Source: Patescibacteria group bacterium (GTDB lineage: Bacteria; Patescibacteriota; Patescibacteriia; 2-01-FULL-39-33). Taken from it: a stretch of DNA of 32,000 bases. The notes beneath the pieces are model-generated. The model was not told the DNA's origin, did no database searches, and saw only the letters and a list, made by a program, of their open reading frames with translations. The stretch covers positions 150,001 through 182,000 of the forward strand of contig JBAZMW010000001.1 of NCBI GenBank assembly GCA_041649575.1, given 5' to 3'. Below are positions 18,340 to 18,832 of this stretch, piece by piece. The translations under genes and the position numbers were made by a program. Each line of letters opens with the position of its first letter. Within the stretch, counting starts at the first letter, position 1.

Positions 18340-18423
18340 CCCGCCTGCGCCAGTTTTGGCATGTTCAATAATGAGTTCGACCGAGGCGCGCAGTTTAGGA
18401 TGATAATTGGTAAATTAAAATAA
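18340..18423 (+). pseudogene. Displaced second copy of the murD 3' end (last 27 codons plus stop)
   Basis: It is 84 nt long and I count 70/84 identities with 18238-18321. The offset is exactly 102 nt, so it is in frame behind the murD TGA. It encodes PACASFGMFNNEFDRGAQFRMIIGKLK*, against PACASFGMFNNELDRGAQFRMIVRKLK* in murD. Confidence 0.8.
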
Positions 18424-18465
18424 AAAAAATACGGCGGCGAGGACACTTGCGTATCACTCGCCGCG
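18422..18465 (-). terminator. GC-rich intrinsic terminator of cassette D
   Basis: On the minus strand: GCGGCGAG-tgatacgcaagtgtc-CTCGCCGC (18434-18464), then cgtatttttttta. The T-run overlaps the TAA of the displaced murD fragment. Confidence 0.65.
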
Positions 18466-18472
18466 CTCTAGG

Positions 18473-18742
18473 TCACGGACTGCGTTCACGATTGACCCCA
18501 CGGACATGGGATCGTGCTCCTGGGGGGCCGTCCCACAAAGCACGGCGGTTACCGGGGGCCGCGCGTCGCGTCCGCGACTGCACAGAGGCCTTTATGGAAG
18601 GCCCGGCGTCCGCGGTCTACGTCCGCAGGACGTGTCGCCGGTGCCCGTCGATGGCCGCGCCCGTCGCGCTTGTGCTCGGAAACAGATTCGAATTCGATAT
18701 GGACAATGCGAGATGGGTGCCTTTTCGGTGCTGAATGTGCAT
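18473..18742 (-). pseudogene. High-GC cassette D reading frame: 41 codons, an in-frame TAG, then 47 more codons. It is either a small basic protein gene or an amber-interrupted gene.
   Basis: AAGGAGG (complement of 18753-18759) lies 10 nt upstream of the ATG at 18742. The frame reads MHIQHRKGTHLALSISNSNLFPSTSATGAAIDGHRRHVLRT, then TAG (18617-18619). The same frame stays open to the TGA at 18473-18475, 8 nt before the terminator hairpin. My hand count of GC3 is about 73% in the first part. I recognise no homology, and open frames are common in GC-rich DNA. Confidence 0.35.
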
Positions 18743-18803
18743 AGTGCGTGTTCCTCCTTGTTTGTTCCATTGAACCTCTTCCAGATTGAAACTATGTAAG
18801 GCC

Positions 18804-18832
18804 ATATTAGCATATTAGTAAATTTTTGTCAA
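18804..18832 (-). promoter_or_regulatory. Sigma70-type promoter of cassette D
   Basis: On the minus strand: TTGACA (18827-18832), N17, TAATAT (18804-18809). It points into the high-GC segment and away from ftsW. Confidence 0.6.

Follow-up and report, generated by a model that had tools for sequence, protein, structure and literature searches.

Several described systems come close to the locus analysed here. Dual-function small RNAs, and mRNAs for small proteins that also contain functional structured elements, are represented by SgrS/SgrT in enterobacteria, RNAIII/delta-haemolysin in Staphylococcus and SR1/SR1P in Bacillus, and small RNAs derived from 3′ UTRs are a further class. Replacement-type flexible genomic islands hold differing content at the same locus between conserved flanks, and are exchanged by homologous recombination. 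Excludons, or antisense transcription units inside operons, have been described in Listeria. Lastly, GC-rich intergenic regions in AT-rich genomes are a hallmark of structured non-coding RNA, which is used in the GC-versus-length discovery strategy.

We analysed a 32,000-nt stretch of a Patescibacteria genome (the window), in which a minus-strand unit at 18422-18832 lies between murD and ftsW, antisense to the dcw genes. The first-pass annotation had described it as a self-contained antisense unit, and its promoter, Shine-Dalgarno (SD) site, ORF, GC-rich body and terminator are all present in the sequence. The features of the region are listed below.

16885-18321, plus strand: murD (Pfam MurD-like_N, Mur_ligase_M and Mur_ligase_C)
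18322-18339, plus strand: 18-nt filler tggcttcggcgaggcagg between the two murD ends, resembling the left arm of the terminator
18340-18423, plus strand: displaced second copy of the last 27 murD codons and the stop, from alignment to 18238-18321
18422-18466, minus strand: intrinsic terminator, a 15-pair hairpin (18466-18431) with a GCAA loop and T8 (18429-18422), from sequence and folds
18467-18616, minus strand: GC-rich (~70%) structured 3′ domain, with one short hairpin and one long hairpin of ~105 nt
18617-18742, minus strand: SD-linked ORF of 41 codons plus TAG (18619-18617), encoding the peptide MHIQHRKGTHLALSISNSNLFPSTSATGAAIDGHRRHVLRT
18743-18797, minus strand: predicted 5′ leader of ~55 nt, weakly folded, with an A/C-rich stretch and AAGGAGG at 18759-18753
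18804-18832, minus strand: sigma-70-type promoter, with TTGACA (18832-18827), a 17-nt spacer, TAATAT (18809-18804) and a TG extension
18873-18884, no strand assigned: palindromic promoter-upstream motif TTTAAATTTAGA, 40 nt upstream of the −35 element
18935-20080, plus strand: ftsW (Pfam FTSW_RODA_SPOVE, E = 1.6e-97)

The consensus promoter claimed earlier, TTGACA-N17-TAATAT opposing the cluster, was borne out: it agrees with the consensus at 10 of 12 positions, carries a TG just upstream of the −10 element, and is the top-scoring site in the region. Promoter-like sites on the plus strand reach only 9/12 and lie within AT-rich DNA. The TTGACA-N17 form is standard among the promoters of this genome, where it matches 103 times. 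The motif TTTAAATTTAGA occurs 20-50 nt upstream of many TTGACA promoters of the genome in either orientation, and is common to the unit and to related units in the murD/ftsW slot. Transcription would start at about 18797. The leader follows a design, CAACAA..AGGAGG..N5-10..ATG, that recurs in many of the genome's real genes; the AAGGAGG site noted before is in place, separated by a 10-nt spacer from the ATG at 18742-18740 (minus strand). The GC hairpin and T-run, given earlier as 18422-18465, were also recovered, with the hairpin at 18466-18431 followed by eight T; a simple scanner overlooked this terminator because the hairpin has two bulges. The unit therefore has its own promoter and an intrinsic terminator in an intergenic region, as a stand-alone sRNA gene does, and also an SD, a start at proper spacing and an uninterrupted ORF, as a small-protein gene does. 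Its strong, ordinary promoter would drive a minus-strand RNA of ~370 nt that ends at the intrinsic terminator.

Translation confirmed that the SD-linked frame runs for 41 codons to the TAG at 18617-18619. These codons have GC1/2/3 values of 0.56/0.51/0.73, resembling those of real GC-rich genes of the genome, and a GC periodicity with a chi-square p of 0.10. Their codon log-odds of −0.03 falls between in-frame and out-of-frame values; ranked against reference chunks, it is in the bottom 4% for real in-frame sequence and the top 7% for out-of-frame sequence. The predicted peptide is basic and polar, without a hydrophobic stretch, and a type I toxin-antitoxin locus was rejected on this ground. 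Beyond the TAG, the frame had been described as open for 47 more codons to a TGA 8 nt before the terminator. The 47 codons are there, and the TGA (18475-18473) is 6 nt from the hairpin. By chance alone, 47 codons would stay open with a probability of ~0.4 at 65-70% GC, and all six frames are nearly open. The post-TAG frame has GC1/2/3 values of 0.72/0.72/0.64, with GC3 the lowest, and its codon score of −0.21 resembles that of out-of-frame sequence. A coding test that tolerates frameshifts and stops gave the unit 7.3 versus 6.5 ± 1.8 (p = 0.25), while the positive control, a real gene into which a TAG and a 1-nt deletion had been introduced, scored 19 (p < 0.001). Recent breakage of a gene from the genome's GC-rich pool was therefore rejected, and the amber-interrupted pseudogene of ~89 codons, one of three readings offered in the first-pass annotation, was not sustained by these values. 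TAG recoding was rejected as well, since TAG is an ordinary stop that terminates 117 of 593 long ORFs and none of the genome's 50 tRNAs has the anticodon CUA. Faint 3-periodicity does occur in the unit, in two different phases (p = 0.07 and 0.04).

The folding analysis divided the unit into two parts. On the minus strand, the 3′ domain folded with z-scores of −2.29 (7/200 shuffles as good) and −2.71 (0/150), and on the plus strand with +0.08 and +0.05, so that the excess stability is confined to the transcribed strand. No coding-like frame was found in 18467-18616 by codon scores or by the frameshift-tolerant test. The ORF region has no excess structure (z +0.7). The best-supported model is an RNA whose 5′ half would be unstructured and mRNA-like, and whose 150-nt 3′ half would form a hairpin domain. 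Among the three earlier readings, the 41-aa basic peptide with a structured 3′ UTR of ~150 nt gave the best fit.

We then searched for relatives of the unit. No Rfam covariance model, including those for RNase P RNA, tmRNA, 6S, SRP RNA and large non-coding RNAs such as HEARO, OLE, ROOL, GOLLD and raiA, matched the window at the gathering score; at E up to 10 the region gave three chance-level matches only (10-14 bits), and 10 related loci gave nothing. RNase P RNA and tmRNA of the host sit elsewhere in the genome, and the ARAGORN scan of the window for tRNA and tmRNA found nothing. The third earlier reading, a structured non-coding RNA, is a less likely candidate. DNA searches of the unit's own genome, 60 relatives and 400 class genomes gave chance-level short matches only, as did searches of plasmids, phages and viral contigs. 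The searches of the ~460 related genomes detect only roughly ≥80% identity and missed a known 74% homologue, and therefore exclude only close copies. Within its own genome no further copy was found (blastn, word size 7): matches to the unit body were at most 18 nt, and those to the shared AT-rich promoter extended up to 32 nt at 78-84% identity. A repeat or mobile element (REP, MITE or IS end) was rejected, as the unit is single-copy in the genome.

Protein-level searches gave the same picture. When phmmer compared the unit protein with 1.84 billion representatives, it matched only itself; among 15 billion proteins it falls into a cluster of its own, and Pfam, PHROGs and NCBIfam gave nothing. 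The 62-aa ORF is a singleton in the collections searched. The queries comprised the SD-frame read-through, the frameshift-repaired conceptual protein, both plus-strand ORFs and both 73-aa minus-strand ORFs, each run through some of phmmer, a 5.8-billion-cluster search, Pfam, PHROGs, NCBIfam and back-translated contig scans. All of them returned self matches only, with no homologue for the frameshift-repaired protein, and with one exception: a match to the repeat protein P0004, whose E of 1e-4 is summed over three repeats and which was judged spurious. A literature search on the unit found nothing relevant. The orphan status assigned to the unit earlier is thus upheld by BLASTN-type searches, with their limit of ~80% identity, and by HMM searches.

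Inspection of related genomes placed the unit in a wider pattern. Among 28 family genomes with murD and ftsW on one locus, the spacer is at least 160 nt in 11, and in 10 of these 11 a TTGACA promoter lies on the minus strand near ftsW, with a hairpin and T-run at the murD stop. Two additional slot units were found in metagenome contigs, and all 12 units with a recognisable promoter are antisense. About one-third of the genomes in this Patescibacteria family therefore bear an antisense promoter-to-terminator unit at this junction. The bodies of these units do not align with one another as DNA (blastn) or in translation (tblastx). What blastn, tblastx and k-mer comparison found in common was only the promoter region, the pair L008/L029 and a 17-nt stretch between L018 and L046. 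The inserts are single transcription units of 0.16-1 kb. In the closest relatives (70% MurD identity, the highest in the collections searched) the murD-ftsW gap is 11 nt, and presence varies within genera: 2/4 genomes in g13, 3/9 in g15 and 1/2 in g10. Non-homologous inserts thus occur at one junction that is empty in other genomes, which is the form of a variable-content slot. Since related bacteria carry unrelated, similarly built units there, the site is a recurrent landing slot, whose units appear from the comparison to have been gained, lost and replaced within genera. The two-part anatomy recurs in four unrelated units, L006, L010, L018 and L046, with z-scores of −0.8 to +2.3 for the ORF regions and −2.1 to −3.7 for the 3′ bodies. 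Between the units L008 and L029 of genus g13 the identity is 74%, whereas the murD and ftsW genes on either side have a dS of 1.4-1.7 and a third-position identity of 0.50-0.56; at least this one slot unit is under selection.

On this basis we tentatively propose that the unit is a lineage-specific accessory transcription unit, neither a known RNA nor a recently broken gene. It would make a small peptide, a stable 3′ RNA or both, in the manner of dual-function small RNAs, and would belong to a class whose members occupy murD|ftsW, have unrelated sequences and are often built alike. That such inserts are tolerated inside an operon is probably due to their antisense orientation. Weighing against this proposal are the ORF periodicity at p = 0.10, the codon score of −0.03, and the modest fold z-scores of −2.3 to −2.7.

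An unlikely alternative that still deserves serious weight is a non-functional remnant: recently recombined GC-rich DNA of foreign or related-lineage origin, perhaps an old and heavily decayed gene, with a working promoter and terminator and no useful product. The base composition is compatible with such an origin. The unit had been described as the most GC-rich segment of the window from one hand-counted line of 75%; its rank holds, and the peak in 150-nt windows is 0.73 (18526-18675). In 200-nt windows its GC of 0.71 ranks second across the entire 0.92-Mb genome, which has 44% GC on average. The host's RNase P RNA and tmRNA have only 46% GC versus 65-73% in the unit, so the unit stands far above both the genome and its structured RNAs, and GC-rich accessory protein genes are common in this genome. 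GC richness here fits recent foreign DNA as well as selected structure, and is at least as indicative of the accessory gene pool; it is an unreliable signal of non-coding RNA in this host.

The murD border is also in line with a remnant. The duplicated murD 3′ end differs from 18238-18321 at 14 of 84 nt (~10 synonymous and 3 non-synonymous differences), and this diverged duplicate marks a recombination border. The similarity extends into CGGCGAGG of the terminator arm, the stop codon of the displaced copy overlaps the T-run of the unit, and a TAA followed by an A-run and a hairpin is the junction form in relatives too. The scar points to a probable exchange with a related lineage bearing the same kind of terminator. 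As the displaced copy is still an intact frame, a recent event is suggested, and the intact signals of the unit may therefore reflect only its youth. The lack of a homologue in any collection searched, the weak periodicity in two phases and the quick turnover of slot units within genera would likewise suit a remnant. However, the coding test is negative even with frameshifts and stops tolerated, the stability of the 3′ fold is limited to one strand, the same two-part anatomy is found in unrelated units of other genomes, and one slot unit (L008/L029) is demonstrably conserved.

We regard as rather unlikely a purely non-coding structured small RNA, in which the SD and 41-codon ORF would be incidental or serve in ribosome loading or RNA stabilisation. 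The conserved unit L008/L029 is such an RNA, ~135-170 nt in length without SD or ORF; modelled as R1, it was not found in the present genome and is not a family-wide housekeeping RNA. Three other related units have ORFs of only 1-2 codons beyond the ATG (MR, MRK and MK), which in 2/3 of them finish 13-16 nt before the terminator, and a peptide therefore cannot be the common product of the class. The fold of the whole unit (z −2.29, with 0/100 shuffles as stable) and the lack of a protein homologue agree with a non-coding product. On the other hand, the leader and SD match the mRNA design of real genes exactly, the ORF region is conspicuously unstructured with high-GC3 periodicity, and no Rfam family was found.

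The antisense promoter could, in combination with any of these products, act as a regulator or insulator of the dcw operon, with collision or pairing with read-through tuning ftsW-murG-murC; we consider this improbable. The other dcw junctions are tight (13 nt for ftsW-murG and 5 nt for murG-murC), except for 167 nt after mraY. On the plus strand the terminator hairpin has an A-run before it and no T-run after it, which leaves no obvious block to dcw read-through. The sequence accordingly gives no support to the claim of the first-pass annotation that murD and ftsW are transcriptionally uncoupled, as the terminator works on one strand only. The read-through RNA would be fully complementary to the unit RNA, since plus-strand transcription would pass the terminator. 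Antisense transcription, in turn, should not enter murD, because the terminator lies exactly at the end of the murD sequence. The strong promoter facing the operon, the predicted plus-strand passage and the antisense orientation of 12/12 junction units with a recognisable promoter all speak for regulation. The orientation is explained equally well by a passive filter, however, as any terminator-bearing cassette in the direction of the operon would deprive ftsW of transcription; moreover, two-thirds of the family genomes, the closest relatives included, have no unit, and the slot contents are not conserved.

It is more doubtful still that murD|ftsW is a dedicated slot for fast-evolving antisense genes of the "short ORF plus structured RNA" type, in which translation of the tiny ORF would set the length of the antisense run or the strength of its pairing with dcw read-through RNA. 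If it were true, the output of cell-wall and division genes would be coupled to ribosome state, as a translation-sensed, excludon-like brake on growth. Finally, a pseudogene of ribosomal protein S16 (rpsP) is effectively refuted and hardly credible: a perfect 22-nt match (18684-18663) to codons 21-27 (VSEHKRD) of rpsP in a class-level genome, with a chance expectation of ~0.01-0.06 over 400 genomes and lying at nt 60 from the unit ATG versus nt 61 from the rpsP ATG, is out of frame relative to the SD-linked ATG, has flanks no more similar than shuffles (p = 0.16-0.39) and contains a 17-mer also present in an unrelated gene of another genome, while Pfam S16 (PF00886) gave no match to the unit at E up to 10, an HMM from 31 same-class S16 sequences scored it at −2.8 bits with all filters off, and a normal rpsP is present at G000 C4:52562-52732.

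By itself, the proposed accessory unit adds another orphan small RNA or small-ORF gene to a lineage about which little is known. The slot pattern is more useful: in one family of ultra-small bacteria, a fixed point in the most conserved division operon repeatedly accepts strongly promoted small units. Functional units would give access to the way in which organisms with almost no classical regulators tune their division genes. Units without a function would instead illustrate how reduced genomes tolerate inserts in an operon through antisense orientation and one-way terminators.

Compared with the known systems, the unit resembles dual-function small RNAs in that a short transcript, delimited by a promoter and an intrinsic terminator of its own, combines a small ORF preceded by a good SD with a separate, strongly structured part. 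It differs from them in having no sequence or Rfam relationship to them; its 65-73% GC is out of the ordinary for an sRNA native to a genome of 44% GC, and its peptide is predicted only. As in replacement islands, murD|ftsW holds unrelated inserts with presence and absence within genera, a border scar and GC above the backbone, but the inserts are tiny (0.16-1 kb) rather than multi-gene, lie inside the dcw operon and are antisense wherever a promoter is recognisable. Like candidates from the GC-versus-length strategy, the region is a long, GC-rich intergenic stretch of an AT-rich genome and more stably folded than shuffles, in a host, however, whose known structured RNAs have 46% GC and whose accessory genes are commonly GC-rich. 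Like an excludon, the unit has a promoter that fires against the neighbouring operon with potential for collision or an RNA duplex; unlike an excludon, its transcript is predicted to stop before murD, so that the overlap would arise only through plus-strand read-through.

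Between murD and ftsW lies a genuine transcription unit, an orphan specific to its lineage, in a recurrent insertion slot. Its source genome, G000, has 0.92 Mb in five contigs and 44% GC, and the window corresponds to G000:C1:150001-182000. The 613-nt spacer between murD and ftsW stands against gaps of 13 nt for ftsW-murG and 5 nt for murG-murC, and the unit body (GC 0.71) ranks second in the whole genome when scored in 200-nt windows. Re-reading the features in the spacer confirmed the coordinates of the first-pass annotation; the in-frame TGA, placed there 8 nt ahead of the terminator, actually lies 6 nt from the hairpin.

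Features of the murD-ftsW region (genes assigned by Pfam)
14499-15554, plus strand, mraY
16885-18321, plus strand, murD
18935-20080, plus strand, ftsW
20094-21149, plus strand, murG
21155-22561, plus strand, murC
18832-18804, minus strand, promoter TTGACA, 17-nt spacer, TAATAT (10/12 consensus, with TG)
18759-18753, minus strand, AAGGAGG
18742-18740, minus strand, ATG
18619-18617, minus strand, TAG after a 41-codon ORF
about 18426-18750, minus strand, GC-rich body (0.73 at peak)
18466-18431, minus strand, 15-pair hairpin with GCAA loop
18429-18422, minus strand, T8 run

The signals of the unit are the ordinary ones of this organism, and it is thus built like one of its genes. The genome has 103 matches to TTGACA-N17-TAnnnT, which often precede leaders of real genes (CAACAA..AGGAGG..N5-10..ATG). 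Many such promoters carry, 20-50 nt 5' of the -35 region and in either orientation, a palindromic motif T(T/C)TAAATTTAGA(T/C)AAAA, which is also common to related genomes; the unit has its own copy at 18873-18884. The motif may serve as a site for a global regulator or as a UP-like element of the lineage. The same signals are found at two genuine small GC-rich genes (about 61%) with strong codon periodicity, one of 100 aa (C4:125187-125489, in region 125111-125600) with its own promoter, SD, and terminator, and one of 119 aa (C2:160745-161101, region from 160739) with its own promoter and SD. Both are part of a GC-rich accessory pool dispersed across the AT-rich genome. The gene-like build of the unit speaks against a chimera assembled from the DNA of another organism. 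Elsewhere, a GC-rich intergenic stretch (C3:170950-171300) lies next to a tRNA gene and holds a partial copy of its 5' portion.

The stability of the predicted RNA was compared with that of shuffled sequences.

Folding stability of the two halves (z)
18742-18617, ORF region: minus strand +0.73 (no better than shuffles); plus strand -0.18
18616-18467, 3' domain: minus strand -2.29 (7/200 shuffles as stable) and -2.71 (0/150); plus strand +0.08 and +0.05

These values point to an RNA whose 5' half is open and translatable and whose 3' half is structured on the transcribed strand only. They lend support, with modest statistics, to the earlier suggestion of a 41-aa peptide followed by a structured 3' UTR. 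In the ORF region GC1/2/3 is 0.56/0.51/0.73, as against about 0.6/0.5/0.72 in the GC-rich genes of the genome, and the codon score is intermediate between in-frame and out-of-frame values. We tentatively favor, at slightly under even odds, an RNA that carries a small ORF followed by a structured 3' domain and whose product would be the peptide, the RNA, or both. The readings set against it overlap in part.

That the unit is a transcribed, useless remnant is unlikely, though it deserves weight. A recently broken gene, proposed earlier as an amber-interrupted frame of about 89 codons, was rejected by two tests. Codon log-odds trained on 31 GC-rich genes of the same genome gave 0.26 +/- 0.15 for real 41-codon chunks in frame and -0.23 +/- 0.14 out of frame; the stretch after the TAG scored -0.21, and the score was positive in none of the frames of either strand. 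The second test was a dynamic-programming coding path that tolerates frameshifts and stops, compared with shuffles.

Coding-path scores
Unit: 7.3 (shuffles 6.5 +/- 1.8), p = 0.25
Two genuine small genes, GC-rich and as long as the unit: 24, p < 0.001
One of the two, given a TAG and a deletion of 1 nt: 19, p < 0.001

The open run after the TAG is uninformative, because 47 stop-free codons have a chance probability of ~0.4 at this GC content and all six frames are nearly open. The TAG is a normal stop; its recoding was rejected since 117 of 593 long ORFs end in TAG and there is no tRNA-CUA. Two phases show a weak 3-periodicity (p = 0.07 and 0.04, by post-hoc segmentation), so the unit may be an old decayed gene. 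A perfect 22-nt match (18684-18663) to rpsP (S16) codons 21-27 of G133, a genome of the same class, at a nearly equal offset from the start codon, was judged a coincidence. An S16 pseudogene was rejected: Pfam and custom S16 profiles fail, as does flank similarity, and a normal rpsP is found elsewhere in the genome.

A purely non-coding RNA, the third of the early options, appears rather improbable. The unit had no Rfam match at the gathering score and only chance matches of 10-14 bits at E up to 10, so a known housekeeping RNA, which would have overturned the interpretation, was not found; ARAGORN detected no tRNA or tmRNA in the window. RNase P RNA and tmRNA are present elsewhere in the genome, both at only 46% GC. 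The Rfam small-SRP (RF00169) and 6S (RF00013) models had no match in this 98%-complete genome. 

A repeat was rejected, the unit being single-copy in its own genome. No DNA relative was found in 60 relatives and 400 related genomes, plasmids, phages, and viral contigs; the whole-genome DNA search missed a true 74%-identical control homologue that blastn with word size 7 finds, and these negatives therefore rule out close copies only. Among ORFs of the unit, only one of 62 aa (18617-18805) occurs in a 15-billion-protein collection, as a singleton. When the 89-aa TAG read-through was compared by phmmer with 1.84 billion representatives, the only matches were itself and a repeat-protein artefact. 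Neither the remaining ORFs nor a conceptual protein with its frameshift repaired had a match in the searched protein collections and family libraries.

A regulatory or insulator role, combinable with any product model, is very unlikely. The sequence gives no demonstration of the proposed transcriptional uncoupling of murD and ftsW: on the plus strand an A-run precedes the hairpin and no T-run follows it, and the sole terminator-like site of that strand in the region is weak and no more than chance would produce. If transcription of the dcw cluster read through, the ftsW leader would be about 600 nt long and complementary to the RNA of the unit, and interference between the two is possible.

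The murD border bears on how the unit arrived. The last 27 murD codons and stop (18238-18321) are repeated at 18340-18423, with an intact frame in each copy. Of the 14 positions that differ, about 10 are synonymous and 3 non-synonymous, and the remaining one falls in the stop codon. Had an untranslated copy drifted after in-situ duplication, non-synonymous changes should predominate. The differences are rather those of two alleles shaped by selection in separate lineages and later joined, and suggest a recombination scar between diverged lineages. Similarity extends beyond the stops into CGGCGAGG of the terminator left arm, so both parental lineages probably had such a terminator after murD; the second copy, with TAA, A-run, and hairpin, has the junction form of relatives. 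The duplication may instead be a strain-mixture assembly artefact.

The murD|ftsW junction is a recurrent insertion slot. Among GTDB representatives of the family, 28 loci have both genes, which overlap or lie <=62 nt apart in 17 and are separated by 160-1010 nt in 11. Ten of these 11 long spacers have a minus-strand TTGACA-N16-18 promoter adjoining ftsW and a GC hairpin with T-run at the murD stop; metagenome contigs supplied two further units (L046, L059). The junction is 11 nt in the closest MurD relatives (70% identity) and tight outside the family, and presence varies within genera (g13 2/4, g15 3/9, g10 1/2). The consistent antisense orientation of the units can be explained simply and passively: the terminator of a co-directional cassette would cut off ftsW, and a one-way antisense terminator would not.

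The unit bodies do not align with each other as DNA or translated; they share only the promoter region and upstream motif, which follow the general promoter consensus. One type is demonstrably under selection, judging from two species of g13 whose RNAs are 74% identical while the third positions of flanking murD/ftsW are only 0.50-0.56 identical, with dS at 1.4-1.7.

Conserved ORF-less RNA (about 135-170 nt)
L008:2900-3085, minus strand
L029 (= L162), G022:C34:15680-15813

It has no Rfam match, and its covariance model R1 found those two genomes and one weak match only; the RNA is thus a candidate for a new sRNA family. A strong SD with ATG is present in 8 of 12 slot units, with ORFs of 41, 41, 35, 31, and 13 codons plus MRK, MR, and MK. 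The same two-part anatomy is seen in the five units whose ORFs are longer (ORF z -0.8 to +2.3; 3' bodies z -2.1 to -3.7). The mini-ORFs MRK*, MR*, and MK* (ATG and 1-2 codons) follow a strong SD in L017, L027, and L059, and in L017 and L027 their stop lies 13-16 nt 5' of the terminator hairpin. Although no gene follows downstream on the same strand, the layout is like that of an attenuator.
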